Shown here: one piece after another, positions 1-18,137 of the stretch
Numbering within the stretch: position 1 is the first letter of the stretch
How the letters are laid out: every line of letters begins with the position of its first letter
Virus record (IMG/VR): IMGVR_UViG_3300010373_000056
Coordinates: 1-55,492 of that record
Reading direction: 5' to 3' (one strand)
DNA from: a virus
Lineage: Duplodnaviria; Caudoviricetes
DNA length: 55,492 nucleotides
The notes under the pieces: generated by a model
What the model was told of the DNA's origin: nothing
Seen by the model: the letters and a program-made list of their open reading frames with translations, nothing else
The model's database searches: none
Position numbers and translations under genes: made by a program

Positions 1-19
1 GGTCTAGCGTCCACCCGCA
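1..19 (+). repeat. Terminal direct repeat, left copy (circular assembly overlap)
   Basis: GGTCTAGCGTCCACCCGCA at 1-19 is identical to 55474-55492. Confidence 0.95.
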
Positions 20-650
20 CGTCCGGCTCGGTGCAGATCCCGACGAACTGGTCCTCGTCCCGGGCGTCGATCAAGAACCCGATCCGCTCCAGGCACGTCG
101 CCACGGCCCCGAAGAGCTCCCCAGCGGCCTCGTCCAGGCGGATCGAGGTCACCGCCCCGGCCAGCCAAGCGCAGAGGTCCCGGTCCGACCAGGCGCTTGA
201 GGACGCCAGATCCCTCACTGGGCGCTCCGGCTTCACGCCCCTGGTTTCGCACAGGTGCCGGATCCAGCCGGACAGATCTGCCCTAGCCTCCCAGAGCATC
301 TCCGAGGCGTTCCAGCCGATCTGCCACGGCGTCACCGGCAACGCAACCCGACCCGACGATGTCCTGAGGTGCGCCGGCAACTCCTCGTCGTAGTACAGGT
401 TCACCACAGGCTTGCCGTCCTCGTCGACCTCCCGGTAGGCCGTCACACCGTCCGGGGGGATCCAGAGCCGCTGCGAGTTCTGGGAGACGCCCGCGCCGTT
501 CAGACGATCCTGGCGGGTCAGGTTCACCTCGAGCTCGGCGAGCATGGCAGGTAGTGATGAGAGGCGTTGGACCAGGACGTCCGAGCAGGCGGCGCAAAGG
601 TAGCTGTCGGTCTTGGCGTGGCAGACGCGGCAGGTGGGGGACTCGCTCAC
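1..650 (-). CDS. 5' part of origin-spanning Zn-finger/HTH DNA-binding protein (about 357 aa in total; possible late regulator)
   Basis: GTG at 650 overlaps the stop of 647..946; reads MSESPTCRVCHAKTDSYLCAAC... with no stop and continues in frame into 55050..55487 across the terminal overlap. Confidence 0.8.
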   Translation of the reverse strand, partial: MSESPTCRVCHAKTDSYLCAACSDVLVQRLSSLPAMLAELEVNLTRQDRLNGAGVSQNSQRLWIPPDGVTAYREVDEDGKPVVNLYYDEELPAHLRTSSGRVALPVTPWQIGWNASEMLWEARADLSGWIRHLCETRGVKPERPVRDLASSSAWSDRDLCAWLAGAVTSIRLDEAAGELFGAVATCLERIGFLIDARDEDQFVGICTEPDVRVDAR

Positions 651-946
651 TCGGCGCTCCATTCAGGACGAAAGTCAGGATGACCAGAAAAGGGCGCAGC
701 TAAGAAGCGGAGCAGTTCGTGGGGCACATCCCGGACCCACCGCTCATCAGATCCATGCCCCTCCCAATGGCCCATGGCTAGATCGGGTGCGGCTTCAAGT
801 TCGTCATCCTGCACCCATTCGATGATGCGGCGGCGGGCTGCGCACTCAGCCAACACCCGCTCATGCGGCCACCATGCCGAAGGCAACAAACCCCCAGCCT
901 CGTCCTCTTCGATCCGTTGCAGCAAAAACTCGACTAGGTCGCTCAT
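647..946 (-). CDS. DUF6221-like actinophage protein
   Basis: Pattern DLVEFLLQRIEEDE...RVLAECAARRRI...LAAPFSGHPDFRPEW. Confidence 0.7.
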   Translation of the reverse strand: MSDLVEFLLQRIEEDEAGGLLPSAWWPHERVLAECAARRRIIEWVQDDELEAAPDLAMGHWEGHGSDERWVRDVPHELLRFLAAPFSGHPDFRPEWSAE

Positions 947-1167
947 TCACTGCCTCCCGCGTGGGCCTGTATCCAATGCTCAGCAGCGACCCGCCACGGA
1001 TTGCCGACATCCACCCGCAGATGCTCGTCGAAATCACCCCACGACGCCGGGAACCCCAACTGGCAGTCCACGCAGAACACCTCCGGATACCAGCCCTCGA
1101 CGTCTTGGACCTCGACGTAATCGAGATGCTCGGCCATCACAGCCCGCAGATCGTCCTCGTCGCTCAT
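943..1167 (-). CDS. Hypothetical phage protein
   Basis: ATGA-coupled ORF, 74 aa, CxxC. Confidence 0.65.
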   Translation of the reverse strand: MSDEDDLRAVMAEHLDYVEVQDVEGWYPEVFCVDCQLGFPASWGDFDEHLRVDVGNPWRVAAEHWIQAHAGGSE

Positions 1168-1334
1168 TGCGTCCCCTCAGGCGCTGGCTCAAGGAAGAAC
1201 ACATCGACGCATTCGCCGTCCCAATCGACGTAGACGATGCGGACATCCCCGTCTGGAACCTCGAACGGGTGGGTGAAGTTCATCTGCCCGTCGGCCCAGA
1301 GGACCATCTTCCGGCGCAGCCGGTACTGGCTCAT
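1164..1334 (-). CDS. Small hypothetical protein (MSQYRLRRKMVLWADG...)
   Basis: ATGA overlaps at both ends, RBS GAGGGG; below the ORF track size cut-off. Confidence 0.6.
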   Translation of the reverse strand: MSQYRLRRKMVLWADGQMNFTHPFEVPDGDVRIVYVDWDGECVDVFFLEPAPEGTQ

Positions 1335-1840
1335 GTCGTCCCCTCAACCGGCAAAACAGACCTATTTACGCTAGAAGCGGCTACCGCGGTTGGCAGCCCA
1401 TCACGGCGCTCATCGGCCCAGAAGTTCGGGGCGAAAACCGGGGCGTCAAGAGACCCGCGCAGCCAGTTGTAGAGAATCTGGCCCGTGCGGCCGTTGCCGT
1501 CGCGGAACGGGTGGATCTCCTCGAACTCCCGGAAGAACTCCTCTGGTGACAGCAACTCGCCGTCCTCCAGCAGTGATGCCATCGCCACGGGCACCTGCTG
1601 CCACGGCATCTTCACCGAGTAGCCGACCCGCACACCTACCCGCCTATAGCCGTCACGGTTGACGACCGGCTCGACTAATCGCCCGATCTCGATGAGCCGT
1701 TCCTCGTCCAATGCCCCGACTTGGCACGCGAAGTCCCAGGCGTCGATCATCCAGCCGACACTCAACTCGCCCGAGCGTTGCAGCAGGCATTCCTGCGCGC
1801 AGAAGTTGACTACCTTCAGCTGCGGCGCACTGAACTTCAT
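1331..1840 (-). CDS. Minimal Fic/Doc-family protein
   Basis: HPFRDGNGRTGQ matches the Fic motif HPFxDGNGR. Confidence 0.85.
   Translation of the reverse strand: MKFSAPQLKVVNFCAQECLLQRSGELSVGWMIDAWDFACQVGALDEERLIEIGRLVEPVVNRDGYRRVGVRVGYSVKMPWQQVPVAMASLLEDGELLSPEEFFREFEEIHPFRDGNGRTGQILYNWLRGSLDAPVFAPNFWADERRDGLPTAVAASSVNRSVLPVEGTT
1352..1389 (+). repeat. Junction repeat arm A
   Basis: CAAAACAGACCTATTT-ACGCTAGAAGCGGCTACCG-CGG; the 19-mer is identical at 2610-2628 and 4260-4278. Confidence 0.9.
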
Positions 1841-2133
1841 GTCGTCCCCTCAAGAGCCGCCCGAAGCTTCTCGCCGCAATCAACCCGGGCCGCGCCTTGC
1901 TGCGTGTGAACTTCGATCGAAGCCCATTCGTCGGCTAGTGCTTGTACGCGAGACAGCCGAGCCGCGGCCTCACGAGCGAACGACAACGACACCAACTCAC
2001 CAGCGGCACCCCATGACGGGCGCTTCATCTGCCCATCGGTGTCACGCTCCACACCGAGCGCGGCAGCGAGGACGTCCTCGATCTCGCGGATGACGTCAGC
2101 GCGGGCGGCGGCCAGGATCTCGGATTCGCTCAT
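1837..2133 (-). CDS. Hypothetical phage protein (MSESEILAAARAD...)
   Basis: ATGA-coupled start at 2133 inside ORF 1837..2547. Confidence 0.65.
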   Translation of the reverse strand: MSESEILAAARADVIREIEDVLAAALGVERDTDGQMKRPSWGAAGELVSLSFAREAAARLSRVQALADEWASIEVHTQQGAARVDCGEKLRAALEGTT

Positions 2134-2582
2134 GTGTTGCCTTTCCAGTTTTGGATGGCACGAGCAGTAGGACACGGCCACAGAGGAACGGTGACGTGAC
2201 AGTGGTTGCACGTCAGGGTGAACGTCGGCGCGTTGGTCGTTCCGCCGCTGATCGGGATCCTGCGCGGCTGGTGTAGCTGGTCTATTTCGGTTAGGGCCAG
2301 CCGAGCAGCATCCAGGTCGATTGAGACGGGTCCGCATTCGCCGCACTCGGACGCCTGTCCAGCGAAATAGCCCTGCCACCACGGGTCGTCGTCGCGTTCG
2401 TCGCCCCAGTGCGGGAGTCGGGCGGCTACCCGGATCGGGTCGACAGCGTCCGCAGCGGCCAGAGCGTTCCGCATCTCCGAGCGGCACATGGCGGCGTCCC
2501 CAGGATCGACGACGTCGTCGCCCCATTCGTAGTAGAACGCTTCGCATGCCGCTTCGATTCGCGGGTCGGCTGTGTCACTCAT
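2130..2582 (-). CDS. Hypothetical actinophage protein with CxxC...WPCPT motif
   Basis: 150-aa ORF, ATGA coupled. Confidence 0.7.
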   Translation of the reverse strand: MSDTADPRIEAACEAFYYEWGDDVVDPGDAAMCRSEMRNALAAADAVDPIRVAARLPHWGDERDDDPWWQGYFAGQASECGECGPVSIDLDAARLALTEIDQLHQPRRIPISGGTTNAPTFTLTCNHCHVTVPLWPCPTARAIQNWKGNT

Positions 2583-2956
2583 ACCCCACCCCCAAAACCA
2601 GACATATCTACGCTAGAAGCGGCTACCGAGGACTCGTGGGCAGCGGCGCGATCGGTGCCCGGCTCGGCAAGCCGGTCGTTTCCATCCGGTTCGGTGGGTA
2701 TTGCTGGTACAGCCCGAGCCGCCGCCAGAATGACTTCGATGAAGCGATCTACACCTGCTGCGAAGGCCTCGGTGCTGATTCGGTGTTCCTTCCATCGTCG
2801 GCGGTCTGTTCGGAGTAGGACGGCGTATTCGCTGAGTCGCCCGAGTACGTCTTGCGCCAGATCTCTCTCGGGCACTCCGGAGGACACGGCCCTGACCCAC
2901 AACAGATCAGCAGATTGTGCAACGGCGGGTCCGGGATCGTCACGCTGAACCTCCAT
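2579..2956 (-). CDS. Hypothetical protein ending in the repeat-encoded peptide SVAASSVDMSGFGGGV
   Basis: ATG at 2956 lies 6 nt after GAGGAGG; start uncertain (alternative ORF 2749..2961). Confidence 0.5.
   Translation of the reverse strand: MEVQRDDPGPAVAQSADLLWVRAVSSGVPERDLAQDVLGRLSEYAVLLRTDRRRWKEHRISTEAFAAGVDRFIEVILAAARAVPAIPTEPDGNDRLAEPGTDRAAAHESSVAASSVDMSGFGGGV
2593..2631 (+). repeat. Junction repeat arm B
   Basis: CAAAACCAGACATATCT-ACGCTAGAAGCGGCTACCG-AGG. Confidence 0.9.
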
Positions 2957-2957
2957 G

Positions 2958-3365
2958 TCATTCCTCCTCAACGGTCGCATCTGCGCCCGCCTCGTGGCGT
3001 ATATGAGCATTTTGATCTTGTGGTGTCTCCCCTGATAGAGCACCGGATCCGTCGCATTCGCCGCAGCGCCATCGGTCGGCGTCGAAGATGACGTAGCCAC
3101 TGCATCCGTCGTGACGCCACTGACCGTCGTGATTCGGGTGGATTCCGTCCCGGTCAGCCAGCGCGGCACGTAGTTGGCCGCGCAACTCGCGCGCTTCGTG
3201 GTAGTGCTGCGTCGCCAGCGTCTCGAAGTTCGATGCTTCGGCGGTTAGTGTGGCGACCCTGGCCAGCGCCTGGTCACGGGTCTCGACGGCGGCAATGTAG
3301 GCAAGCTCCAGTTGGTCGCGCTTGAGCTTGCTGATGTGTGTCCAGCCGTGGTCGATGATGCTCAC
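2958..3365 (-). CDS. Hypothetical coiled-coil/Zn-ribbon protein
   Basis: 135-aa ORF, coupled to neighbours. Confidence 0.6.
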   Translation of the reverse strand: MSIIDHGWTHISKLKRDQLELAYIAAVETRDQALARVATLTAEASNFETLATQHYHEARELRGQLRAALADRDGIHPNHDGQWRHDGCSGYVIFDADRWRCGECDGSGALSGETPQDQNAHIRHEAGADATVEEE

Positions 3366-3670
3366 GTCTGCTCCAAGTAGTGTCGGGCGAGCCTTGCCCG
3401 TGAGGTGTCGTCTTGGCCGCCTTGGAACAGCGCCGCTCGAATGTTCGCGAGCTTGGCGTCTTTGGTGGCGTTGTCGGCCCGGAGACGCACCAACTCAGAC
3501 TGCAACGCCTTGTAGACCAAGACGGCTTCGGCTAGGCAGTCAGCCGGGAAATGCCACTCGCCCCTGCGCGCAGCTTCGGAGGCAGCCGTCCATTTCGCCG
3601 CCAACACCGCTGCCGCTTCGATCTCGTCGTCTGTTCGGGTGTCCGCTACTACGTCGTCAGCCACGGCCAA
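3362..3670 (-). CDS. Hypothetical phage protein
   Basis: 102-aa ORF, RBS GGAGG. Confidence 0.6.
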   Translation of the reverse strand: MAVADDVVADTRTDDEIEAAAVLAAKWTAASEAARRGEWHFPADCLAEAVLVYKALQSELVRLRADNATKDAKLANIRAALFQGGQDDTSRARLARHYLEQT

Positions 3671-3905
3671 CCTCCTCCGATTTCGGGACGATCTTGAATC
3701 CGCGCTGGTCGAGCCCTTTGATTAACTCGTCGGCTTTCGCGAACATCGGGTGGGTGGCGTGCGGCAGCGCGTCCATCACGGCGGTCTGGATGTCATACGG
3801 CTCGTCGCCGTCATCGGCTTCGTAGTCGCATTCCTCGCATGTCCAGCAGGAATCGTCTGGGTCGTCCGGGTCGCATCCGCAGTGCGCGCAGCCGTAGCAG
3901 CTCAT
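3657..3905 (-). CDS. Hypothetical Cys/Asp-rich protein
   Basis: 82-aa ORF with RBS GGGAGG. Confidence 0.6.
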   Translation of the reverse strand: MSCYGCAHCGCDPDDPDDSCWTCEECDYEADDGDEPYDIQTAVMDALPHATHPMFAKADELIKGLDQRGFKIVPKSEEVGRG

Positions 3906-3981
3906 GTTGGTGTGCCTCCCCCAACCGCAGGTCCATGTACGCCGTCGTCACAGAATCCGGGCGCTTGGTGTGCCTCCCTGC

Positions 3982-4239
3982 TCAGCCCGAGCCCCGCAAA
4001 AGCTCGACGGATGCTTTGCGCTCGCCGAGATGAAGCGCCTGAATAGCGTCGGCGGCGGCATGAAGTGCTCGCTGTTCGACGGCCCTGTCGTGTTCAGCGA
4101 GCCACGACGACGACAAGATGCGATCGGCGATTGTGAAGTCCTGCCGATTCAGGGCCGGAAACACCTTGCCGCCGTACCTCTGCGCTTGAACCAGCGCGGC
4201 GAGGGCGTCTCGGTCCGCTACCACACCCAAATCAGACAT
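3982..4239 (-). CDS. Hypothetical actinophage protein (MSDLGVVADRDALAAL...)
   Basis: ADRILSSSWLAEHDR...ALHAAADAI pattern; 3' end may be frameshifted. Confidence 0.55.
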   Translation of the reverse strand: MSDLGVVADRDALAALVQAQRYGGKVFPALNRQDFTIADRILSSSWLAEHDRAVEQRALHAAADAIQALHLGERKASVELLRGSG

Positions 4240-4603
4240 CAAGATCACAACCCTCATTCACGCTAGAAGCGGCTACCGCGGATTCGTGGAAAGCGTTACG
4301 CGACGCTTTGCCGATGTGCCACTCGTCGCACTTACGGCAGCGCCAGCACGCGAGGACGATGTTGCCGCCACCTTTGCCGCCCCACGAGCGCGGCACCAGG
4401 TGGTCACGAGTGGCGTGGGAGATGTTCGGCTTGCGCGGCTCACAAACTCGGCAATGGACACGCCTGCCGCAGTGCTGGCAGGTCCAGCCGCGGGCGTCGC
4501 CGAGCTTGTGCATCTGGCCGTGCTTTGAGCCTTTGCTGAATCGCAGGTTGGCTTCAGCCGCGTCTTCGCGGTTATCGGTTTGCCTGTCAGGGTTGGGGCT
4601 CAT
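4232..4603 (-). CDS. HNH endonuclease-like protein with repeat-encoded termini
   Basis: CQHCG...TRDHLVPRSWGG...NIVLACWRC. Confidence 0.75.
   Translation of the reverse strand: MSPNPDRQTDNREDAAEANLRFSKGSKHGQMHKLGDARGWTCQHCGRRVHCRVCEPRKPNISHATRDHLVPRSWGGKGGGNIVLACWRCRKCDEWHIGKASRNAFHESAVAASSVNEGCDLDV
4260..4281 (+). repeat. Junction repeat arm C
   Basis: ACGCTAGAAGCGGCTACCGCGG. Confidence 0.9.
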
Positions 4604-4622
4604 ACCGACCCCCCAAAATCGA
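4591..4622 (+). repeat. 32-bp junction core, copy 1
   Basis: GGTTGGGGCTCATACCGACCCCCCAAAATCGA, identical at 5598-5629. Confidence 0.95.
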
Positions 4623-5610
4623 AAGGCGTGTCCCCGATGCGCTGGACAGCGATATCGAGATACGCGGGGTTGAGGTCTATGCCGATCGCTTTGCGGCCCA
4701 ACCGGCGGGCGACCATCGCCGTCGTGCCGGAGCCGTTGAACGGGTCCAGCACGGTTCCGCCTTCGGGGCAGCCAGCGAGGATGCAGCGCCTAGCTAATTC
4801 AGGTGGCATGGTGGCGAAGTGCGCGCCAGGGAACGGGGCGGTTGGGATCGACCAGACGTCTCCGGGATTCTTACCCAGCGGGTTCGCATCAATCTTCCCA
4901 CCGTCCTTAAGCATGTTCGATTTGAGCTGAGCATGGTGCGTAGCGCCGCCCTGCTGGAACTCGCTCTCATATCGCTTCAACGAGATGGCGCTGTATGGCT
5001 CTCGGATGGCATCTAGATCGAACCAATAGTTGCGGTTCTTACTGAGCAGAAAAACGTTTTCATGGGTAGAGCTGACGCGGTCCGTGACGCTCTCAGGCAT
5101 CGCGTTCGGCTTGTGCCAGATGATCTCCTTGCGCAGCGTCCACCCCCTATCCTGGAGGGCGAAAGCGACCTTCCATGGGATTCCGATGAGGTTCTTCGGA
5201 CGCCCCCATTCCTGCGCCACGTCAACGGGCCGAACAAATCCGCGCCTCGCTGGTTGTTTCCTGTCCGGTCCGACTGCCGCGCCCTTGCCGCTGAAGTAGG
5301 TGTCGCCCAGATTGAGCCACATGACGCCATCGTTCGTCATCGCATCACCTGCAAGGTCAAGGATGTCGACCAGCTTTTCGACGTACTCACCCGGTGACGC
5401 CTCTAAGCCAACCTGGCCGTCCACCCCGTAGTCGCGGAGACCGAAATAGGGCGGCGATGTGACAACGCAGTTCACCGAGCCTGGTGCGAGGGTGGCGAGC
5501 ACTTCCCGTGCGTCACCGAGCAGCAGCGTCACGTCGTGGTCCTCGAAGTACGGAACCGCGGTAGCCGCATCTTGCGTAGATAGATTTTCTGTTCCCTGGT
5601 TGGGGCTCAT
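4600..5610 (-). CDS. DNA methyltransferase, N6_N4 (beta) family, SPPY type (likely m4C)
   Basis: VTSPPYFGLRDY, HFATMPPEL, VLDPFNGSGTT. Confidence 0.93.
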   Translation of the reverse strand: MSPNQGTENLSTQDAATAVPYFEDHDVTLLLGDAREVLATLAPGSVNCVVTSPPYFGLRDYGVDGQVGLEASPGEYVEKLVDILDLAGDAMTNDGVMWLNLGDTYFSGKGAAVGPDRKQPARRGFVRPVDVAQEWGRPKNLIGIPWKVAFALQDRGWTLRKEIIWHKPNAMPESVTDRVSSTHENVFLLSKNRNYWFDLDAIREPYSAISLKRYESEFQQGGATHHAQLKSNMLKDGGKIDANPLGKNPGDVWSIPTAPFPGAHFATMPPELARRCILAGCPEGGTVLDPFNGSGTTAMVARRLGRKAIGIDLNPAYLDIAVQRIGDTPFDFGGSV

Positions 5611-5629
5611 ACCGACCCCCCAAAATCGA
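5554..5629 (+). repeat. Inverted junction arm E plus 32-bp core copy 2
   Basis: CGGTAGCCGCATCTTGCGT (5559-5577) is a 17/19 reverse complement of the arm 19-mer and is followed by the core repeat. Confidence 0.9.
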
Positions 5630-6350
5630 GAACGTCCTGAGCAAGCCGCTTGGCCGCTATTTCGCAGTACCGCTCATCTACCTCGATGCCGATCGAGCGA
5701 AATCCGAGTTGCTTAGCCGTGACGAGCGTGGTTCCGCTGCCCATGAATGGATCAAGGATCAGAGCGGCAGGCGGCACGACCTGTAACGCCCACAGCATGA
5801 CCGGCTCAGGCTTCTGGGCTATGTGGTCGCGGTCCCCGTCGATCTTGCACGACACGACGTTCTGAGGGCTCCCGCCGCCATCGATGACCGGACCGTTAGT
5901 CGCATAGACCACGTACTCGGCTGAGGATGAGAAACGACCCTTCTGCATCCGGACACCGGGCTTCCACCAGGTGCCGAGGTTGCGCCAGACCCATCCGCCA
6001 GCCTGGACCGCGTCGGTGAGAACGGGCAGATTGCGCCAGTCGATGAACGAGACGAGCACCGCCCCAGGCTCTGACGCATTGCGTGCGGCGTTCAGCCAAA
6101 GCGTCGCCCAGGCCATGAACGAGCGCTGGTCACGGTTGTCCCCAGCGAACTCCGGCCGATAAGCGTACGTGTCGCTGTTGACGTACTTCGTCGTCGTCGC
6201 CTGTGCTCTGTCGCCCCGGAATGCGCCACCCGACGAATACGGAGGATCCGTTATCACAGCGCCGACGCCCGACAGGTCATGCAGGATGTCGAAGCAGTCG
6301 CCGTGGTAGAGGGTTACGAAGTCGTCGGTGTAGTACGGGTTGGGGCTCAT
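5607..6350 (-). CDS. DNA methyltransferase, N6_N4 (beta) family, DPPY type (likely m6A)
   Basis: ITDPPYSSGG, HIAQKP, ILDPFMGSGTT. Confidence 0.93.
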   Translation of the reverse strand: MSPNPYYTDDFVTLYHGDCFDILHDLSGVGAVITDPPYSSGGAFRGDRAQATTTKYVNSDTYAYRPEFAGDNRDQRSFMAWATLWLNAARNASEPGAVLVSFIDWRNLPVLTDAVQAGGWVWRNLGTWWKPGVRMQKGRFSSSAEYVVYATNGPVIDGGGSPQNVVSCKIDGDRDHIAQKPEPVMLWALQVVPPAALILDPFMGSGTTLVTAKQLGFRSIGIEVDERYCEIAAKRLAQDVLDFGGSV

Positions 6351-6398
6351 AGAGACCCCCCCAAAACAGACCTATCAACGCCAGGAGGCGTGCTACCG
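6338..6398 (+). repeat. Junction core variant plus degenerate arm F
   Basis: GGTTGGGGCTCATAGAGACCCCCCCAAAACAGACCTATCAACGCCAGGAGGCGTGCTACCG; CAAAACAGACCTAT is identical to 1352-1365. Confidence 0.85.
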
Positions 6399-6547
6399 CC
6401 GAGTTCCAGCGTCGTGAATCGGCCACGCTCATCGCGCGCCCGCACGAGACCGTCGCCACGGCACTCCGAGCAGTCGCGAGGCCCGTTCATCGCGTCTTCC
6501 ATGCCAGAACCCCGGCACCAGGAGCAACGCTCGTAGGCCGTCCTCAT
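6347..6547 (-). CDS. Small DnaJ-type Zn-finger protein
   Basis: CSWCRGSG...CSECRGDG (CxxCxGxG twice). Confidence 0.7.
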   Translation of the reverse strand: MRTAYERCSWCRGSGMEDAMNGPRDCSECRGDGLVRARDERGRFTTLELGGSTPPGVDRSVLGGSL

Positions 6548-6768
6548 GACGCCGCCTCGTCGTCGCATTCCTCGCCAGTGACGTTCGTGGCGTAGGCCAG
6601 CATCCCCAGGTAATCCCACGGGGTCAGGTCCCGGGAGGCGATCACGCTCAACCCGCTGACCCCGTCGGTGTCCATCGTCTCCATGATCACGATGAACCGG
6701 GTGGCCATCTCGGGCCGCACCGACTGGCTGAGGGCCGTTGTCACCCGGTCTCGCAAAGCCTCGGTCAT
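6544..6768 (-). CDS. Hypothetical protein (MTEALRDRV...)
   Basis: ATGA coupled; LTPWDYLGML motif. Confidence 0.65.
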   Translation of the reverse strand: MTEALRDRVTTALSQSVRPEMATRFIVIMETMDTDGVSGLSVIASRDLTPWDYLGMLAYATNVTGEECDDEAAS

Positions 6769-7088
6769 CGGAGTTTCGCCTCCGTCTCCAGGTAGGCGAA
6801 GATGTTCCACACGACCGCGATGGCGTGGTCCTCGTCGGTCTCCCCCGCCCGCCACTGATGCAGGTGCCGGAGCGCGGAGGCCATGAACCGCTCAAGCTCC
6901 TCCGGGGAGTTCGCCAGTTCCCAGTTGTGGTCGCCATATTTCTCGGCCCCCCGGGCATAGAGCTCGGCGAGGCGCAACTGCGGCCCCAGTGGGATCAGGT
7001 CGAAGCGGGGCTTGCCCTCGGTGCTGTCCCGCCGGAAACCAGACGGGTACTCGACCCGCTGCCCCGAGTCCAGGGTCTCGAATGTCAT
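6765..7088 (-). CDS. dATP/dGTP diphosphohydrolase-domain protein (DUF5664-like)
   Basis: GKPRFDLIP...GAEKYGDHNW...SALRHL...EDH. Confidence 0.85.
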   Translation of the reverse strand: MTFETLDSGQRVEYPSGFRRDSTEGKPRFDLIPLGPQLRLAELYARGAEKYGDHNWELANSPEELERFMASALRHLHQWRAGETDEDHAIAVVWNIFAYLETEAKLR

Positions 7089-8113
7089 GCCAGCTCGATT
7101 CGATATTGAGCGGTCACTCGACCCTTATCGGGGTCGATGAAATGCAAGCGCTGCGACGGAATAGCGGCGGCGGCGACAAACTCCCGTGCGTACTCGTTGT
7201 CGCTTTCGGGACTTCCCGTCATAAACACGGATCCGCCGGCCGCTAAAGTCAGGTCGTTGTGGTTATGAAAGTGTCCCACGTAGATATCTTGGAATCCACC
7301 CTTTATCACACCGGATTTCCAGGCGTTCGACTTCCGAAGAATGCCGAACATGGGCGTCTGGCCGCCGAATCCTTTGAACTCGTCGCCATGCACCAGAATG
7401 CCGTGGTAGTTGCCGATCGAGAACCTCTGATGCCAACTGTCGGCGTTCACGTAGGTGAACCTCGGCTCGGTCGCGAAGCGGTCCGTGACCACCTTGTAGA
7501 GCACCCGGTCCCAGTTGTCGCCGCGAGGCGCGTCGCCGGGCCTGCCGACCCGCCCGTGGTTGCCGGGCTCCCCGATCACCTGCACCGTCTCGAACGTCTC
7601 CAGCGCCACTCGGATCACTGCTTCGAGCGTCGCCCCGGCGGTGAACATCTGCTCGAAGGTGTGCGCCTCCACCTCCCACTCCTGCCCCGGGAACGTCGTC
7701 GTGTTCTCCACGAAGTCCCCGCCGAGCAGGATGATGCAGTGCCGCACCGGGTGGTCGGCCCGCTGAATGTCCGCGATATGCACGGCCTTGGTGGCGAACC
7801 GGCGCACCCGCTCGTCCATCACAGCCATGTCGTACGACGCGGTCTTCTTCCCGCACTGCCAGTCCGTCAGATGCCAGAGGGCAACCTCGGGCTTCCCCTT
7901 CTTCCGCCGGTCAGCCGGCGGGGGGACGATCGGCTTGTACCCGCCGTGCGCCAGATAAGCGTGCCGGGCGGCCGCGTAGGTGGCCTCCACGAACCCCGCC
8001 GACTTCGCCCTCGACTGAGACACGGCCCGCTGAGCCTTCGACAGGGCGGCGCGGAGCTCGTTGATCTCCGACTGCGCGGCCACGTCTGCGGCGACGTCCT
8101 TTATCGAGGACAT
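7085..8113 (-). CDS. Calcineurin-like metallophosphoesterase
   Basis: HLTDWQ, GGDF, GNHG, HGD and GHFH motifs. Confidence 0.85.
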   Translation of the reverse strand: MSSIKDVAADVAAQSEINELRAALSKAQRAVSQSRAKSAGFVEATYAAARHAYLAHGGYKPIVPPPADRRKKGKPEVALWHLTDWQCGKKTASYDMAVMDERVRRFATKAVHIADIQRADHPVRHCIILLGGDFVENTTTFPGQEWEVEAHTFEQMFTAGATLEAVIRVALETFETVQVIGEPGNHGRVGRPGDAPRGDNWDRVLYKVVTDRFATEPRFTYVNADSWHQRFSIGNYHGILVHGDEFKGFGGQTPMFGILRKSNAWKSGVIKGGFQDIYVGHFHNHNDLTLAAGGSVFMTGSPESDNEYAREFVAAAAIPSQRLHFIDPDKGRVTAQYRIELA

Positions 8114-8367
8114 GAGCACCCGCCAGCCTGACGCTTGCGGTGCCGGAGAATGGCGTTCGCCGCGACCGGCTTCCCATGCACGTTGTACTCGTTGGGGTAT
8201 TTCGCCAACGCCGCCGCGATCTCCGACGCTTTGTTGTCGTGATCGTCGATCAGGCGGACGAGCTCTTTGGACTCGTTCTTGTCCAGGCGCAGCAGCAGAA
8301 TGCCGACCGTGCATTGAGGGATTTTCGATCCCTTGGTCTCCGCGAGCGCTTCACTCAATCTCGTCAT
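8101..8367 (-). CDS. Hypothetical protein (possible HTH)
   Basis: 88 aa ending ILRHRKRQAGGCSC. Confidence 0.6.
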   Translation of the reverse strand: MTRLSEALAETKGSKIPQCTVGILLLRLDKNESKELVRLIDDHDNKASEIAAALAKYPNEYNVHGKPVAANAILRHRKRQAGGCSCPR

Positions 8368-8404
8368 GAAATCTCATACCTTCCCGTAGCCCCGAGAAAT
8401 GTGG

Positions 8405-9670
8405 TCATTGCGCCGCCTCGGTGAGAATCTCCAACTCGCCGGGATCGTGGATAGCCGTCCAGGGCAGCTTTCCGCCGCGATAGAACCCGACAGGGGCGTC
8501 CCGCTTGCCTCGGTCGCCCCGGAATGGGGCGCGGAACACGAACGGCGAGGCTGGGTTGTCGACGGCGCGGGACAGCACCCGGCCGTGCGTCGCCCACGCG
8601 GCCCAGATCATCGACCCGTAGGGCGACTCGCTGGCGGTGCCCATGACCGCCTTGGCCATGTGGTGCTCCAGCCACAGGGCGCAGCCGTAACGCTTGCGGA
8701 TGCTGTTGAACACCGCCCTCACCTCGTCGGCGCAGGTGTCCCAATCGGAGCCTCCCTTGCTGTAGACGTTGTTCAGCGAGCCGAGGCAGACGATGTCCGG
8801 CCGGGCCTGCGCGACCGCCCGCTCGAGCAACTGAGCCCCGGCCCGCGTGCGGACGTTCAGGCCTTCGACGTGAGACCAGACCTGCGCCCGGTCCGGGTCG
8901 AAGTCGCCCAGCCGCTTCACCTGCGCCAGGTAGGACGAAGACTCGTCCGCCGCCTCGCCTGGGTCGTTCTCCAGGTCGACCACAAGAGACCGCTTAGGCT
9001 CGAACCGCTCCAGTGGATTGAACGGGTTGATTCCCGCCGCCGCGCACCAGGCGACCTGGCGCGAGAGGGTCGTCTTGCCGGCACCCATCGGGGCCAGGAT
9101 CATCCAGACGTCGCTGGACGAGATCACACCGGGGATGACCCACTTGCGGGCCACGCCGCCGTGTCGGTTGATGAAGTCGTCCCACGATTGCAGATCCTCG
9201 ACAGGCGCGTCGGATCCCTGGTCGTTGACGAACAGATCCAGCGCGATCGACTCCCGCGCCAGGGCGTCCGCCATCCGGTCGGGGTCGGCGATCTCGGCGG
9301 CGATCTGCTGGATCCGCTGGCCGAGCTTCCACGCCGAGCGGCGGCGGGATGCATCCCGGACAAGCTCGGCGTGGTACTCGACGTTGGCGGGCGTGACCAC
9401 GCTCGACGTCAACTCGTGCAGGTACAGCGCGCCCCCGGACTCACGCCCGAACCCGAGCGCAGCGGCCTCAGCGTCCACCGTGAGCGCGTCGATCGCCTTC
9501 CCGGCCGCCCTCATTCCGGTGAGCACATTCCAGAGCTTCTGATGGCGGTGGTCGGCGAAGTCGAGCTCGGTCAACATCCGCTCGACCGCCGGGAGGTACT
9601 TCGGGGCGATCAGAACCGACCCGATCACCTGCTGCTCAGAGGTCAGCGCCTCGGCCACTTGGGTCACCAC
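8405..9670 (-). CDS. DnaB-like replicative helicase (DnaB N-domain plus RecA/AAA ATPase)
   Basis: EQQVIGSVLI...DFADHRHQ N-terminus; Walker A APMGAGKT. Confidence 0.85.
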   Translation of the reverse strand: MVTQVAEALTSEQQVIGSVLIAPKYLPAVERMLTELDFADHRHQKLWNVLTGMRAAGKAIDALTVDAEAAALGFGRESGGALYLHELTSSVVTPANVEYHAELVRDASRRRSAWKLGQRIQQIAAEIADPDRMADALARESIALDLFVNDQGSDAPVEDLQSWDDFINRHGGVARKWVIPGVISSSDVWMILAPMGAGKTTLSRQVAWCAAAGINPFNPLERFEPKRSLVVDLENDPGEAADESSSYLAQVKRLGDFDPDRAQVWSHVEGLNVRTRAGAQLLERAVAQARPDIVCLGSLNNVYSKGGSDWDTCADEVRAVFNSIRKRYGCALWLEHHMAKAVMGTASESPYGSMIWAAWATHGRVLSRAVDNPASPFVFRAPFRGDRGKRDAPVGFYRGGKLPWTAIHDPGELEILTEAAQ

Positions 9671-10371
9671 CCACCGCCTGCCGCAACCGCCACGGAAGCG
9701 CCGCCTTCGAGGGATGCCCAGTGCTTCGCCAATGCGGTCGGCGTCAACTCAGCGCCGGGGAACTTGGCGCGGTAGTTGCGGGCGCGGAGTTGGATCTGCG
9801 CGGCGGTAGCCCCGACTGCCTTGAGATCACGAACAGCGACGGAGACAGGACCTCGGCCTGACTTGGTGATTTGGGCGTCGTTGATGCTGCACACCGTGAC
9901 GACGGCGTCCCAGATCGGGTCCCTCTCACGCGGCTTCGCCGCAAGGGTTTGATCTTTCTCTTTCTCTAACTCTTTCTCTGCTACCGATTTGCTAGCGCCG
10001 CTGTCATGACCGACGCCTAGCAAGCGGCTAGCACTTGCTAGGGCTTTTGCTTGCCCCCCCTTGGCTCCCGCAGTGGCCCGCTTCTCCTTTAGCGCGGCCT
10101 TCTGTGCGAGCGACCGCTGGTGCTCGAGGAAGTCGTGGCACGTCCAGTCGCTGCCCGCCGGCCGGAGCAAACCAGCCTTCTCCAGCTCGGTGACGGCCTT
10201 GCGGCTCTCCTTCAACGCGACCACGCCGGGCACCTTCCCGTCGGTGTTGTTCCGGTCGCAGTAGCACCAGAGCGAGACCAGTGCGCGGAACGCCCGGTCT
10301 GATAGGCCGACAACCTTGGGGTGCTCCGGCATCCCGTTGTGGACCTTGATGTAAAGGCGGTCATCAGGCAT
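9664..10371 (-). CDS. Phage replication initiator
   Basis: YIKVHNGMPEHPKV...LWCYC...TDG...HDFLEHQ; EKELEKEK linker; directly upstream of the helicase. Confidence 0.75.
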   Translation of the reverse strand: MPDDRLYIKVHNGMPEHPKVVGLSDRAFRALVSLWCYCDRNNTDGKVPGVVALKESRKAVTELEKAGLLRPAGSDWTCHDFLEHQRSLAQKAALKEKRATAGAKGGQAKALASASRLLGVGHDSGASKSVAEKELEKEKDQTLAAKPRERDPIWDAVVTVCSINDAQITKSGRGPVSVAVRDLKAVGATAAQIQLRARNYRAKFPGAELTPTALAKHWASLEGGASVAVAAGGGW

Positions 10372-12646: not shown

Positions 12647-12877
12647 TCATGCGATCACACTCAGAGTCCGGTAGGAGCCGCTCCGGCCACGCTTGACGTA
12701 GCCGCGAGCCTCCAGCGCGTTCAGCTGGTGCGAGATCGAAGACGTGGACTTGAGTCCGCAGGCCGCACCGATCTCCCGGTAGTTCGGAGCCCAGCCGTAG
12801 GTGTCGATGTAGAGGGCGATGAAGGAATAGATCCGGTATTGCCGAGCCGATAAAGGGGGACGCTCGGTAATGGTCAT
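12647..12877 (-). CDS. LexA-like winged-HTH protein (DNA-binding domain only)
   Basis: LSARQ..IY.FI...GWAPNYREIG...GLKSTSSISHQLNALE.RGY. Confidence 0.85.
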   Translation of the reverse strand: MTITERPPLSARQYRIYSFIALYIDTYGWAPNYREIGAACGLKSTSSISHQLNALEARGYVKRGRSGSYRTLSVIA

Positions 12878-13261
12878 TTAGCCTCTCCCGGCCATCTCGT
12901 AACTAGCGCGGACAGACGAACCCAGGGACCGGAGGATCTCGGCGTCGGCCAACTTCACCCGCAACGCCTCCTGTGCGATCTCCCGCAACGTGGTCGCCTG
13001 CTCCAACTCCTGCCAGGGGGTCACGCACCGCTCGAAGATCGCCTCTTTGCGGGCGTCCGCGTTGCTGATGTCGCTCCCCCGCTTCACGGGTGGCACGTCA
13101 TGGGCGGCGACGATCTCGGCCCGTTTCAATGCGACCTTCGCTTTCGTCTCGGCGATTCGGGCGGCGCGTAAGTCGCCCTGAGCACGCGTGATCTCGTTGC
13201 GGACGGCGTTCAGTTGCGCCTCGATGTCGAGTGGCGTCATTGCCTCGTAGGCAGCGTTCAC
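12878..13261 (-). CDS. Coiled-coil hypothetical protein
   Basis: GTGA-coupled start; ends LRSLGSSVRASY. Confidence 0.6.
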   Translation of the reverse strand: MNAAYEAMTPLDIEAQLNAVRNEITRAQGDLRAARIAETKAKVALKRAEIVAAHDVPPVKRGSDISNADARKEAIFERCVTPWQELEQATTLREIAQEALRVKLADAEILRSLGSSVRASYEMAGRG

Positions 13262-13431: not shown

Positions 13432-13982
13432 GCGGCCAGCGCCTCTCGGAGGGCCTCGCGATAGTCGGCCATGAACTTCTCCAACTTGGGCATCACCGAG
13501 GGCAGCCACGCGGGGTCGTGCTCGACGCGGGAGACCGAGATTCCCGACGGCCTCCAGACGACGAAATCGCACCAGGAGCGGCCGGCGCATTCGAGCTGCA
13601 GCCGGATCTGCGCCTCGTACTCGGGCTTCTGGTCGATGTGGTCGTACTTCGCCGATGGCGGGCACTTCACCTCGACCATGCCGTCCAGGCCGACGTAGCC
13701 GTCCGGGGTGGAGGCGAGGAACGGGTGTAGCGGGTGGATGAGGAAAGCCTGTCCGCCCCAGACCATCACGCCGCGTTCGCGCTCGTAGTCGGCCAGCGCG
13801 TCCCGCTCGTGCTTGTGTCCGTAGGCGGTGTGCTCGTTGCCTTGGAACTCGGCGGGCAAACCCTTCGCCTGCTGGATCATCTCGGCCAGCACCTTCGCCC
13901 GAGACTGGTAACGGTTAAGACCCAGCACGGCCCCGATGCGCGAGCCCGTGATGCGGCCTTCCCTGAGCGGGCTCAGCGTCAC
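13428..13982 (-). CDS. YqaJ/lambda-exonuclease-like protein
   Basis: R..RITGS, G...E, ASTPDG, EVKCP, Y..QIRLQL. Confidence 0.9.
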   Translation of the reverse strand: MTLSPLREGRITGSRIGAVLGLNRYQSRAKVLAEMIQQAKGLPAEFQGNEHTAYGHKHERDALADYERERGVMVWGGQAFLIHPLHPFLASTPDGYVGLDGMVEVKCPPSAKYDHIDQKPEYEAQIRLQLECAGRSWCDFVVWRPSGISVSRVEHDPAWLPSVMPKLEKFMADYREALREALAA

Positions 13983-14752
13983 GCGGACACCTGCTCCCGC
14001 AATGCCTGCATCTTGGCCGCGTAGTCCACGCGCAACGGCTCCCGCTGGGCGGCGCTCAACTTGGACTTGGCCATCTGCTCGCCGACCTTGTTGAGCTCGG
14101 CCATCGTCTCCGACATGGCGATCGACGCCGCGAAGTCGGCAGCGAGCAGCGGATCTTCCGGCTCTTCGTCCGGCACGACCTTCTGGGACTCGTGCTCGAT
14201 CTCGTCGTTGCCGAGGCTGACCTGCTGAGCGACGCCCTCCTGGACGTCCTCCGGGGCTTCGTCCTCGACGCCGACCAGCGTGGCCTTGACCAGCGCGCTC
14301 GTCTGGCCCTTGTTGTAGAGGGAGAGGCCGAACTGGTCCCCGAGGTTGATCGCGGCCCGCTTCTTGGCCAGCGAGATCGCCGACTTATAGGCCAGGTCGT
14401 GCCCGTCGCCCCGGGTTTGGTTCTGCGCCGTGGCCGTCGATCCGTCTTCGTACTGGCATATCACCTTGCCGGTCTCGTCCCGGATCGAGAGACGCAGCAG
14501 AGCCCGGTAGCAGACGTCGAAGCGGTTTGGATCTGGCTCGGTCTTACCCTTGGACACCGACGTTGTCGGCATCTCGAAGACGCACTCGACTTGCAGCACC
14601 TCTGTGTCGAATCCGCCGAACCCGAACATGCGGATCAAGTGCGCCGTGATGTCCTGCTGGGAGACGTGAGAGTGTCCCTGCGCCTGCAGGACGCGCTGCG
14701 GAGCGATCGGTTTCAGGAGTTGGGCAACTTGCTTCTGATTGAACTGGCTCAT
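13979..14752 (-). CDS. Rad52/Rad22-like single-strand annealing protein
   Basis: LIRMFGFGG, AYKSAISLAKKRAAINLGDQFGLSLY; adjacent to the exonuclease. Confidence 0.85.
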   Translation of the reverse strand: MSQFNQKQVAQLLKPIAPQRVLQAQGHSHVSQQDITAHLIRMFGFGGFDTEVLQVECVFEMPTTSVSKGKTEPDPNRFDVCYRALLRLSIRDETGKVICQYEDGSTATAQNQTRGDGHDLAYKSAISLAKKRAAINLGDQFGLSLYNKGQTSALVKATLVGVEDEAPEDVQEGVAQQVSLGNDEIEHESQKVVPDEEPEDPLLAADFAASIAMSETMAELNKVGEQMAKSKLSAAQREPLRVDYAAKMQALREQVSA

Positions 14753-15022
14753 TCTTCTGTCCCCCATGAAAGAAAGTCCGGCACATACCCGTGACGGCGG
14801 ACCATGCTCGACGCCGACAACCCGTTGCGGTGCCGAGCGCCCGACTGCATGGCGTAGTAGCGGTGGCGGGCGTTGGAGCGGCGCTCGCCCCAGAACATCC
14901 CGACGAGAAGCGAGACGATCGCGATGACGAAGTCCAGGCTGTTCACGACTCGTCCTCGATCCCGTCGAGCCAGAGCCAGAGCGCGACAGCCCAGGCGGCG
15001 GACATGGCAAGCCAGAGGTAAG

Positions 15023-15565: not shown

Positions 15566-16026
15566 CGAGCACCGCCTAGGAGTGAGCCGCAGTCCCACTC
15601 GACGACATCCTCTTTGACCTCTCGGTCTTCGAACGCCGTCGCGACCTGCTTCACGACCGTCCTTGTCCCGATGACCCGCCGCTCGCACACCGCCTCACGG
15701 TCGGCCGCGATCTGCAAGTGGAGGCCGCGCATCGCGGACTGGGCGTAGAAGTAGACCGTCGCGGACTTGTCCCATGTGCCGCCGAGTTCGCGGATAATGC
15801 CGGCGGCAGTTTCACGCTGCGCCTCGTCGCCGAGCAGGTTCCAGCCCAATGGGTTCCACGGCTGCCCGTGGATCGGCAACGGCACGGTTGGATGGGCTTC
15901 GAGGGCGTCAGCGAGGGCGCGCAGTCCAGCGATGTACTCGGCGCGCTCCCGATCCTGGCGGGCGTCATCTATCGAATCCCTGAGCGCCTTCATGAGGTCT
16001 TTGGGCTCGCTCTTTTTGGCGGTCAT
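15562..16026 (-). CDS. Conserved actinophage hypothetical protein
   Basis: GLRALADALEAHP...REAVCERRVIGT...VEWDC. Confidence 0.7.
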   Translation of the reverse strand: MTAKKSEPKDLMKALRDSIDDARQDRERAEYIAGLRALADALEAHPTVPLPIHGQPWNPLGWNLLGDEAQRETAAGIIRELGGTWDKSATVYFYAQSAMRGLHLQIAADREAVCERRVIGTRTVVKQVATAFEDREVKEDVVEWDCGSLLGGAR

Positions 16027-16388: not shown

Positions 16389-16455
16389 GCGGCTTCACAC
16401 CGACTTAGTCCGGCGTCTGAAATACTCATTGGTGTCGATCCCTTCCGATCGGCTT

Positions 16456-16486: not shown

Positions 16487-16487
16487 G

Positions 16488-16842: not shown

Positions 16843-17232
16843 ATGACGAAAGCCATCGTTTCCGAGATGCCCGATCGTGGGGACTCTCTGCGGGCGCAAG
16901 TGGCCGCCGAGGTCCGTTCCGAGCTCAGCCGCAAGAAGATCACGGTCAACAAGCTGCCCGGGCTGATCGGCGAGAGCCAGTCGTACTGGTCTCGACGCAT
17001 CGGGTCGGCCCAGGTTGCGCTCTCGGTCGACGACCTAGAGCGACTGTCGGGGTTGCTTGAGTTGCCGCCGTGGCGGTTCCTGACGACGCGGCCGCAGAAC
17101 GGCGCTCCGCCGCCTTCGTGGGGCTCGGGGTGGGCCCCGCGGGGCTCGAACCCGCAACCTACGGATTACAAGGTGGACGGATCGGTCGCGCTGGCCGATG
17201 TCATCCCGCTTACTCGTCGGCGAACAGGGTGA
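16843..17232 (+). CDS. Immunity repressor (XRE HTH) with attP inside its 3' end
   Basis: VAAEVRSELSRKK...SQSYWSRRI; tRNA-derived WAPRGSNPQPTD segment. Confidence 0.85.
   Translation: MTKAIVSEMPDRGDSLRAQVAAEVRSELSRKKITVNKLPGLIGESQSYWSRRIGSAQVALSVDDLERLSGLLELPPWRFLTTRPQNGAPPPSWGSGWAPRGSNPQPTDYKVDGSVALADVIPLTRRRTG
17129..17168 (-). other. attP common core (3' half of a tRNA, probably Lys)
   Basis: Minus strand TAATCCGTAGGTTGCGGGTTCGAGCCCCGCGGGGCCCACC: T-arm GGTTCGA plus acceptor 3' strand, next to the integrase. Confidence 0.85.
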
Positions 17233-17312
17233 CCAGTCCACTCCGTAAGTTGCCATCGGCAACTAATGTCTTCCCCTTCCCTCGTTGTGTGCCCGCTGTT
17301 AACTTGTCCGGC

Positions 17313-18137
17313 ATGCCGGGGTCCCGCTTAACAGAGTGGGAACAATGGATGCGAGCCGCGAGCCTCGCCCCGCGCACCATTCAGGCCCGCATTGACCTGG
17401 TCCTGCTCTTCGCCGAGCGGACCGGACTCGACCCCACCGGGGCCAGTTGGCAAGACCTCACGATGTTCCTTGCCGCGCTGGCTGGGGCCGGGACCCGCCA
17501 GACCTACCAGGGCCACTTCCGAGCCTGGTATCAATGGCTCGTCCGCATGGAGTACCGACCAGACGACCCGACGCAGAAACTCCACAAACAGCGCGTGCCG
17601 CGACGCAGCCCCCGCCCGTTCACCATCGGCCAGGTCTCGAAGATCCTCAGCCAAAGGATGCACCGACGGACCCGGGCCATGGTGCTCCTCGGCGCATACG
17701 AGGGCTTCCGGGTCAGCGAGATCGCCAAGGTCGCCGGCCCGCACATCGAAGGCCCCAACATCTGGGTCGAGGGCAAGGGCGGCGTGGTCGACAAGGTCCC
17801 GCTCCATCCGCTGGTCGCCGAGGTCGCCGAGACATTCCCAGCCCGCGACTTCTGGTTCCCGTCGCACGTCCGGCCTGGCCCGATGACAGGTAACTCCGCG
17901 TCACGGATTATCTCCGATCTGATCGCCCGGGCTGGTGTCGACGGGACCGCGCATCAGCTCCGGCACTTCTTTCTCACCGAGGCTCTCCGAGCGTCAGGCG
18001 GCAACTTGAAGGTCGCCCAGGAACTGGGCCGACATGCGTCCATCGCGACGACGGCCGGTTACACCAAGGTCGACGACGAGGAGCGGCGTGCGGCGGTGTT
18101 CGCGTTGCCGCGACCGCTCCGGCTGATCTCCAGTTAG
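17313..18137 (+). CDS. int: Tyrosine integrase without an arm-binding domain
   Basis: GFRVSEI, GKGG, HQLRH, LGRH, TTAGY catalytic motifs; start uncertain. Confidence 0.92.
   Translation: MPGSRLTEWEQWMRAASLAPRTIQARIDLVLLFAERTGLDPTGASWQDLTMFLAALAGAGTRQTYQGHFRAWYQWLVRMEYRPDDPTQKLHKQRVPRRSPRPFTIGQVSKILSQRMHRRTRAMVLLGAYEGFRVSEIAKVAGPHIEGPNIWVEGKGGVVDKVPLHPLVAEVAETFPARDFWFPSHVRPGPMTGNSASRIISDLIARAGVDGTAHQLRHFFLTEALRASGGNLKVAQELGRHASIATTAGYTKVDDEERRAAVFALPRPLRLISS

Follow-up and report, generated by a model that had tools for sequence, protein, structure and literature searches.

The DNA analysed here (the window; 55,492 bases) is the whole of the IMG/VR virus record IMGVR_UViG_3300010373_000056, which is classed as linear and estimated to be 77% complete. 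On the cistron boundaries of a minus-strand operon, at 1.3–6.4 kb, it carries copies of a short repeat over which similarity spans approx. 45–60 nt. With moderate confidence, we read this repeat as a translated stop/restart adaptor, comparable in design to MIRUs (the interspersed repetitive units of mycobacteria), which has spread by recombination and doubles as a seam for the gain and loss of gene cassettes. The observations behind this reading are the anatomy of the copies, their reading frame, the tails that they add to genes, foreign copies on other genes, one breakpoint in gene content and direct repeats that flank single genes.

Anatomy and reading frame of the repeat

In the sense orientation the window has four copies of the repeat; in antisense it has one that is robust and two that are marginal. 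They are dispersed at spacings of at least 740 nt, with no tandem arrays. The sense copies are the following.

1331..1392, minus strand: J1, last 19 codons of Fic (..TAVAASSVNRSVLPVEGTT, stop), ending in an ATGA overlap with the next open reading frame (ORF); contains the exact 19-mer discussed below
2579..2634, minus strand: J2, tail of a 125-aa ORF (..ESSVAASSVDMSGFGGGV, stop), ending in ATGA; E=1.3e-6 with a profile of foreign copies only
4222..4287, minus strand: J3, a variant lengthened in its middle, forming the tail of the HNH ORF (..ESAVAASSVNEGCDLDV, stop); E=1.2e-6 with the same profile
6347..6404, minus strand: J6, tail of a zinc-finger ORF, ending in ATGA; 3' half intact

Read along the gene strand, the repeat starts at a sharp left edge (..CGGTAGCC) that is common to copies whose upstream sequence is unrelated. 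The edge is followed by a box of 19–22 nt, which begins with GTAG and a small palindrome and holds a 4–5-bp G+C mini-hairpin, then by a short A/T-rich piece ending in AT and a variable spacer. After the spacer come GTCTG, TTTTGGGGG, a few bases and ATGA. The string TTTGGGG occurs four times on both strands of the whole window, each time directly upstream of one of these ATGA starts.

A 19-mer that a sequence-only reading of this DNA had placed at 1368, 2610 and 4260 (exact, plus strand), and as a reverse complement at 5559–5577 (17/19), was recovered at all four positions, the last with 2 mismatches. It gives 4 matches at ≤3 mismatches in the window, and none of 100 shuffled sequences gave any. 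A profile built independently, from the four foreign copies only, recovers the antisense copy J5inv as well as J1, J3 and J2 at E values of 1e-6 to 1e-8 (J1: 2.8e-7, and 1.3e-11 with nhmmer), and neither nhmmer nor the independent profile returned a significant copy anywhere in the 55-kb window outside 1.3–6.4 kb. The degenerate copy that had been reported near 6378 (J6) stands in part: its box (ACGCC-TCCT-GGCGT) has more than 3 mismatches to the 19-mer and is not significant by itself (E=2 with the foreign-only profile), whereas its 3' half (ATAGGTCTGTTTTG) is identical to other copies, for which reason J6 was counted as real. Its GTCTGTTTTGGGGG is identical to that of the foreign contig L037.

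Each sense copy forms the last 16–19 codons of a different gene (Fic, the 125-aa ORF, HNH and the zinc-finger ORF) and runs into the next start through an ATGA or ATG..TGA overlap; in J3, the stop overlaps the ATGTCTGA start. The upstream ORF continues in the same frame through all four sense copies of the window and three of the four foreign copies, and the two other frames are closed by stops within J1, J2, J3 and the second copy of L037 (L037b). This constancy need not be a mark of selection on the peptide, since an element that sits on an ATGA junction and has a length divisible by three obliges the upstream gene to read the frame of the terminal TGA. The distance to the start codon is approx. 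20–33 nt for the sense copies of the window and up to 58 nt for the foreign ones. The peptides previously noted (AVAASSVN, SVAASSVD and MSPN...DAA) are as claimed.

The codons of the tails are rare in the core genes of the window (GTA 1% of Val, TCT 4%, GCT 6%, GAT/AAT 7%), and the mean synonymous fraction is 0.22–0.26 in the tails vs 0.44 in the accessory genes. Within the box, the third base of an Ala codon covaries with the first base of the next-but-one codon (UA five times, AU twice, GC once, plus GU and UG), and the encoded amino acid shifts between S, C and R along with this pair. The general form of the mini-hairpin, CGCN-TCT-N'GCG, is restructured in some sequences as ACGCC-TCCT-GGCGT or CCGCG-TCTT-CGCGG, with pairing kept. 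A covarying pair of this kind was matched by 1 of 500 shuffles of the ten sequences; one pair in ten sequences is suggestive, not proof. As far as sequence comparison goes, the evidence argues for a constraint on the tail that would act on nucleotides rather than on the peptide. A promoter function of the box was considered and rejected, because the covarying base is the one that would have to stand for the invariant A in a -10 element. In a scan of positions 1–9000, one promoter-like and three terminator-like sites were found, none of them at a copy and not above the number in shuffles, and no Rfam family was detected on the copies.

The antisense copies lie inside or at the end of other genes and encode peptides unrelated to the sense tail.

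5554..5598, plus strand: J5inv, a 45-nt in-frame insertion after codon 4 of the methylase MT1 (peptide QGTENLSTQDAATAV); 17/19 to the 19-mer, E=8.7e-8 with the independent profile
4541..4591, plus strand: J4inv, marginal, codons 5–21 of the HNH ORF; E=9.5, duplex z -1.5 to -2.3
2976..3030, plus strand: possible copy of J3 type, last codons of a 135-aa ORF; nhmmer E=0.47 and BLAST E=2.8, not significant

The insertion in MT1 is visible by comparison with MT2, a distant relative of the same Pfam family (43% identity over the last 67 residues, 24% in the N-terminal part). Both proteins begin with MSPN; between this start and the P-Y-(F/Y) motif common to the two, MT1 is longer by exactly 45 nucleotides, so that its residue 20 aligns with residue 5 of MT2 (15 extra codons); the target duplication is at most 1 nt. 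In Gordonia phage PullumCavea and Mycobacterium phage QueenHazel, the methylase homologues begin 2–3 codons before the YY.DD motif. Similarity to the repeat at 4554–4572, also proposed earlier, is marginal, and the site falls within 21 extra N-terminal codons of the HNH ORF. These codons are an add-on, because the alignment with P0003, the only homologue found in databases, begins at HNH residue 22 (residues 22–89 against 1–68 of P0003). The possible copy at 2976–3030 forms a duplex with J3 (4222–4287) of -50.4 kcal/mol (z -4.4). A protein search with the tail region of the 125-aa ORF returned only the query itself; the method needs several shared 5-residue words and is therefore blind to such tails. 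Searches with Fic and HNH against cultured phages gave nothing useful. For annotation, this means that the last 16–20 or first 15–21 residues of several of these proteins are repeat-derived and lie outside the native fold. As a separate observation, approx. 60 internal residues of the only homologue, among them those following ..ACW(H)C.., are missing from the HNH ORF (4232–4603, minus strand), which may be a decayed nuclease.

The sequence-only reading had joined a left and a right arm into an imperfect hairpin of approx. 100 nt centred on the stop/start junction. The arms are truly complementary (1346–1395 against 5550–5600: -58 kcal/mol, z -8.5) and, as it had also stated, no junction retains both of them. 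The hairpin itself is formed by no copy: the folding energies of six junction RNAs do not stand out from those of shuffles (z -1.1 to +1.2), and the consensus fold of seven sense copies has 8 pairs and -3.7 kcal/mol. Compensatory changes between the arms had been expected; the sole covariation lies within an arm, at one base pair of the 4–5-bp mini-hairpin. Pairing of neighbouring arms over a distance was also considered, but each antisense copy pairs equally well with distant copies, and a specific long-range RNA stem is thus not supported.

Copies in other contigs and repeats around single genes

The repeat occurs beyond the window, where the earlier reading had suggested looking for it. One exact-pattern scan of metagenome contigs gave 32 loci, three of which (contigs L021, L037 and L045, with four copies) were kept as true relatives; their copies are on other genes or free-standing. 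The two copies of contig L037 lie 1.07 kb from each other and close an uncharacterised ORF and a zinc-finger ORF; L045 has one copy, ending an ORF of no assigned family. In L021, the copy is free of any gene and consists of two mini-ORFs joined by TAATG and ATGA; its repeat frame opens at a short ORF with an ATG start, just 13 codons upstream. L037b and L045 terminate in ATGA, and L037a runs off its contig. As observations in their own right, L037 (minus strand, approx. 1046–700) has a start module of its own, (A/G)TGACCAACCAA, three times in approx. 400 nt, which parallels the ATGAGCCCCAACC core of the window, and L045 shares with the window, apart from the repeat, only a 135-nt stretch of 86% identity (52639–52769 against 2111–2243). 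In the window this stretch lies among small ORFs upstream of the terminase, and it may be a conserved non-coding element.

The remaining metagenome loci were set aside. Eighteen belong to one conserved Acidobacteria gene, where the pattern falls on the other strand of a 286-aa ORF, and represent a single chance event; eleven (the four identical loci of the L018 group, and L015, L017, L031 and L039–L042) have neither the flanks nor the gene-end position and were dropped from all counts. The viral contigs gave two matches to the 19-mer pattern, judged to be chance, none to the core pattern and none to a conserved gene-start 21-mer; a shorter box pattern hit 29 viral loci, none with the flanks of the element and most in low-GC contigs. 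Six loci were found in 185,579 reference genomes, all of them the Acidobacteria gene or chance, and no host reservoir of the element is thus visible. A query with the exonuclease of the window identified four viral loci (44–54% identity), none of which holds the element. Two of these exonuclease relatives have unrelated, A/T-richer intergenic repeats of their own, of 22–77 nt (L013 at 12672–13134 and 15107–18382, L012 at 9631–10015).

Shorter sequences are repeated around single genes of the operon. The core copies listed below were located correctly by the sequence-only reading.

4591..4622, minus strand: core copy 1, end of MT1, G-run of the ribosome-binding site (RBS), ATGA and first HNH codons (MSPN); 32/32 identical to core copy 2
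5598..5629, minus strand: core copy 2, end of MT2 and start of MT1; with core copy 1, it flanks MT1 as a direct repeat
6338..6369, minus strand: core copy 3, end of the zinc-finger ORF and start of MT2; 81% (26/32) to the reference, 89–90% over 28–29 nt
1331..1347, minus strand: 17-nt RBS/ATGA junction repeat downstream of Fic; identical to the next
1837..1853, minus strand: 17-nt RBS/ATGA junction repeat upstream of Fic; 17/17 with 1331–1347
3925..4229, minus strand: segment with a 91-aa ORF and spacer, absent in L021, bounded by TTGGG-type runs

MT2 is thus likewise flanked by a direct repeat (core copies 2 and 3, 26/32), and a 13-mer of the junction recurs 46 nt apart behind the 91-aa ORF. 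Flanking repeats of this kind are what a single crossover of a circle made of gene plus junction, or an unequal exchange, would leave behind. Separately, the three consecutive gene starts at 1167, 1334 and 1840 (minus strand) have a common junction, (T)GAGGGGACG(A/C)(C/A)ATGA; junction sequences of the operon are thus repeated even where the long element is not present.

Comparison with relatives at these boundaries revealed one difference in gene content at the edge of the element. L021 joins a J3-type arm (83–85% identity over 59–60 nt) directly to the window junction 305 nt further on (96% over 23 nt), with the edge exactly at the 3' end of the element, and the junction following that one is 90% identical over 51 nt. 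The gene past the shared next junction also differs between L021 and the window. In contigs of the one public soil run that contains the phage, possibly its source, depth over 1–9000 was 5–19 (approx. 7 for the phage); the breaks of these contigs at the 32-nt cores are what 31-letter words would give.

Operon setting, proposed mechanism and alternatives

The genes that bear the repeat are all on the minus strand, in a single long operon in which nearly every junction is an ATGA-type overlap. Pfam assigns its payloads to Fic, HNH, two N6_N4 methylases (MT1 and MT2) and a CXXCXGXG zinc finger, in agreement with the identities given by the sequence-only reading. G+C at third codon positions (GC3) is 0.57–0.81 across 647–6547, vs 0.76–0.89 in six neighbouring listed genes, which fits the expectation for acquired accessory genes. 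The operon and other features relevant here are as follows.

647..6547, minus strand: accessory-gene operon with all copies of the repeat; GC3 lower than in the core genes
7085..8113, minus strand: exonuclease (phrog_284), possible partner of the annealing protein
13979..15022, minus strand: ORF with a Rad52/22-family annealing-protein domain (Pfam PF04098, E=9.7e-13)
17061..18137, plus strand: phage tyrosine integrase of non-integron type

The window has a G+C content of 66% and encodes terminase, portal, tail tube and tape-measure-like proteins, a tyrosine integrase and a DnaB-like helicase, together with small helix-turn-helix (HTH), LexA-like and MerR-like proteins, the Rad52-family ORF and the exonuclease; no tRNAs were found in it. 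The nearest cultured-phage matches of its methylase are in Mycobacterium and Gordonia phages, and by its gene complement the window looks like a temperate actinophage. Its first 19 bases are identical to its last (1–19 and 55474–55492), one base below the usual 20-base criterion; the window may therefore be a circular or terminally redundant assembly, in which case an ORF open at position 3 would carry on at the opposite end. An 894-aa ORF at 19784–22468 (minus strand), probably a tail fibre or receptor-binding protein, has approx. 25 copies of an 18-residue unit (..GLSFTGS..) in its C-terminal half, visible as 54-nt repeats in the DNA.

We infer a coupling function from the anatomy described above, and in addition a way of spreading and a candidate enzyme. 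An element placed on a cistron boundary would remove the stop of the upstream gene, and the ribosome would read on in the single open frame, adding the tail ..VAASSV.., to stop at the TGA of ATGA and restart on the next gene, with the GTCTG..TTTTGGGGG block as the putative ribosome-binding region. The element would thus be a portable stop/restart adaptor that a tightly coupled operon can tolerate. Its copies may have spread by recombination at short homologies, carried out perhaps by the Rad52-type annealing protein and the exonuclease of the phage; a site-specific recombinase was probably not involved. Template switching at quasi-palindromes is a known mechanism, and the inverted copies may have arisen by it at the GGGG/CCCC quasi-palindrome around ATGA. 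Once in place, the copies and the RBS/ATGA cores would act as seams at which single genes are gained, lost or stacked. As a family, the copies would then be small interspersed junction elements of approx. 45–60 nt, specific to a phage lineage and built for translation through them, a description to which we give similar, middling confidence. A stronger version, an integrase-free cassette system of phages, is a long shot in our judgement. In it, a gene with its adaptor would loop out as a circle by annealing of two adaptors or cores and re-enter adaptor junctions in the same or a co-infecting phage, again through Rad52-type annealing, with the mini-hairpin as a signal marking the crossover point. 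If such a system existed, methylases, Fic and nucleases, as counter-defence genes, could be piled up and exchanged with translational coupling intact throughout.

Several points weigh against the adaptor reading. The coupling function is suggested by anatomy, and many other junctions of the operon are ATGA-coupled with no element, which shows that coupling does not require it. One of the off-frames stays open in J6. The adaptor model gives the antisense copies no part to play and accounts for them solely as mutational by-products, and the covarying pair points to a structure that the model does not need. A box conserved across contigs that share little else could equally be a binding site under selection. 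The element is known from just three short foreign contigs, and no close full-length relative of the window was found in the scans of viral, metagenome and reference-genome contigs; the evidence on gene content is one comparison with one short contig, L021. The soil-run contigs speak neither for nor against the reading: their only joints are short-sided and of low likeness, none of them at the repeat.

The binding-site alternative for the box seems to us rather unlikely. In it, the box, with or without the G-rich block, would be a cis-regulatory site for a phage or host protein or RNA that controls the accessory genes at the level of transcription, processing or translation, in the manner of the start-associated sequences of Cluster K or the stoperators of Cluster A, shuffling being a side effect. 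It would account for a box that is near-identical in contigs otherwise sharing little sequence, for the small palindrome with its covarying pair and for the fairly fixed distance to the start among the sense copies of the window, and 13-bp start-site repeats, half of them with upstream inverted repeats, are described for Cluster K phages in the cited part of PMC3203893. The Cluster K 13-mer, GGGATAGGAGCCC, has no match in the window at ≤2 mismatches, however, and such a site would have to operate from two to three antisense copies at other positions relative to the starts and, in foreign contigs, from a spacing that varies up to 58 nt. In addition, no copy lies near the immunity/early-promoter region or elsewhere outside 1.3–6.4 kb, none carries a sigma-70-like promoter, a terminator or an Rfam family, and the folds are not unusually stable. 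A peptide tag, by which the tail ..VAASSV(N/D).. would mark accessory proteins for degradation, sorting or interaction, is scarcely credible. The same frame is indeed used in every copy joined to a gene, but copies with identical amino acids show no synonymous variation, nucleotide changes alter the amino acid (S/C/R) while base pairing is kept, the codons are rare, residues past the motif vary, the antisense copies encode unrelated peptides and the L021 element is attached to no protein.

Two alternatives concern mobility. Independent insertions of a non-autonomous transposable element (of the type of miniature inverted-repeat transposable elements (MITEs), repetitive extragenic palindromic (REP) sequences or MIRUs), mobilised by a host transposase in trans during the prophage state, are improbable: no copy has terminal inverted repeats (TIRs), only single arms occur, the target duplication in MT1 is no longer than 1 nt, a Pfam scan of 61 ORFs showed no transposase, the pattern is absent from the reference genomes bar chance, and the copy number is just 5–7. 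What the insertion model explains well is the sharp left edge next to unrelated upstream sequences, the clean 45-nt insertion in MT1 and the occurrence of both orientations. REP sequences have GTAG followed by a small palindrome, which the start of the box resembles. MIRUs are described as apparently mobile in the cited parts of two reviews (PMC12548453, PMC3184786). An integron-like system would make each arm one half of an attC-like folded site, recombined as a single strand by a tyrosine recombinase. It draws on the presence of an element at the 3' end of each cassette-like gene, all in one transcription orientation, on the complementarity of the arms and on the difference in gene content at one boundary; we nevertheless regard it as very improbable. 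No site has both arms or a stable fold, RYYYAAC/GTTRRRY pairs 40–150 nt apart were absent from both strands of 1–7200, with not even a single site within a copy, and the flanking direct repeats are plain junction sequence. Against TIGR02249, the sole tyrosine recombinase (17061–18137) reaches 31.2 bits where the cut-off is 265, and against NF011946 it reaches 18.9 bits where the cut-off is 435, far below what is expected of an integron integrase (IntI). Of the sequence-only reading, the idea of junction sites for gene swapping is supported in the form of seams of accessory cassettes across which coupling is kept, whereas attC-like or TIR-like recombination as the mechanism is not supported.

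The operon illustrates how repeated DNA can sit at the tightly coupled seams of a phage without harm, and the stop/restart adaptor, as we read it, can serve at these seams in the gain and loss of accessory genes, probably including counter-defence genes. For engineering, it would be a natural and compact stop/restart linker that can stand behind unrelated genes, if coupling is as proposed.

Comparison with known systems

With attC sites the repeat shares a position at the 3' end of promoterless cassettes that point one way; in contrast to them, it lacks core sites, an IntI and an imperfect palindrome that folds. Stoperators of Cluster A mycobacteriophages are repressor-type sites, numerous and asymmetric, which share one orientation and are scattered over the genome, early promoters included. 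Sites of that type were considered and rejected: the copies occur only at 1.3–6.4 kb, they have both orientations, and the HTH/integrase region at 16–18 kb has none nearby. In the modular theory of phage evolution, short linkers at gene boundaries allow modules to be exchanged by homologous recombination; unlike such linkers, the one in the window forms a distinct repeat unit whose left edge is sharp, which contains a hairpin and whose reading frame is fixed.

Closest in design are the MIRUs, which Supply et al. 1997 reportedly described. According to the cited parts of the literature, MIRUs are 40–100 bp long, have ORFs overlapping the flanking genes (PMC3184786) and insert at start codons, with the internal ORF coupled at -4 nt (PMC12548453). 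The repeat likewise is a short interspersed element on the cistron boundaries of an operon, with an open frame that overlaps the downstream start at -4 nt (ATGA); like MIRUs as described there, its setting looks actinobacterial and it has internal G+C-rich inverted repeats, and MIRUs are thought to be mobile, and harmless since translation is passed on. The differences are that MIRUs belong to the mycobacterial chromosome, with 40–50 copies, whereas the repeat is in a phage, with 5–7 copies and no tandem arrays; that in most cases it continues the upstream gene in frame, the separate mini-ORF form being seen only in L021; and that it has antisense copies inside N-termini. The copies being dispersed (at least 740 nt apart) and in a phage contig, we do not file the element as a MIRU; by analogy, the likeness is one of design, not of sequence family. 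Other translated MITE-like repeats (Rickettsia palindromic elements, RUP/BOX and others) extend gene ends, as the cited part of PMC3184786 describes, and similarly are small and have open frames that join the 3' or 5' ends of unrelated genes in frame. In that description they are complete palindromic units of bacterial chromosomes, whereas the window has single arms with stop/start overlaps in a phage.

Among phages, Cluster K has start-associated sequences and their extended form (SAS/ESAS), 13-bp repeats at start sites that sometimes cover the upstream stop codon (Pope et al. 2011, PMC3203893). They too are lineage-specific actinophage repeats, placed where a subset of genes has its RBS and in some cases joined by an inverted-repeat part upstream. 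The likeness is limited to place and lineage-specificity: the element of the window exceeds them in length, is read by ribosomes as a tail, does not extend beyond one 5-kb accessory region and has copies in both orientations. The second close parallel is with the promoter-early stem-loops (PeSLs) of T4-type phages, with which Comeau et al. 2014 (PMC4122927) are also said to deal. PeSLs are short conserved motifs, repeated where the non-essential genes of a plastic genome region meet, and insertions, deletions and replacements are put down to recombination between them (Arbiol et al. 2010, PMC2839356). Gain or loss of this type, by recombination between copies, may be reflected in the window by the one breakpoint against L021 and the flanking repeats of MT1, MT2 and Fic, and the element would likewise serve as a recombination seam in a plastic accessory region. 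By the same account, PeSLs are intergenic and combine promoter and terminator, whereas the repeat is translated, carries RBS and ATGA and has neither promoter nor terminator. Translated junction repeats are known from the MIRUs and recombination seams from the PeSLs; one element that combines both, in an actinophage-like genome, would connect the two ideas.

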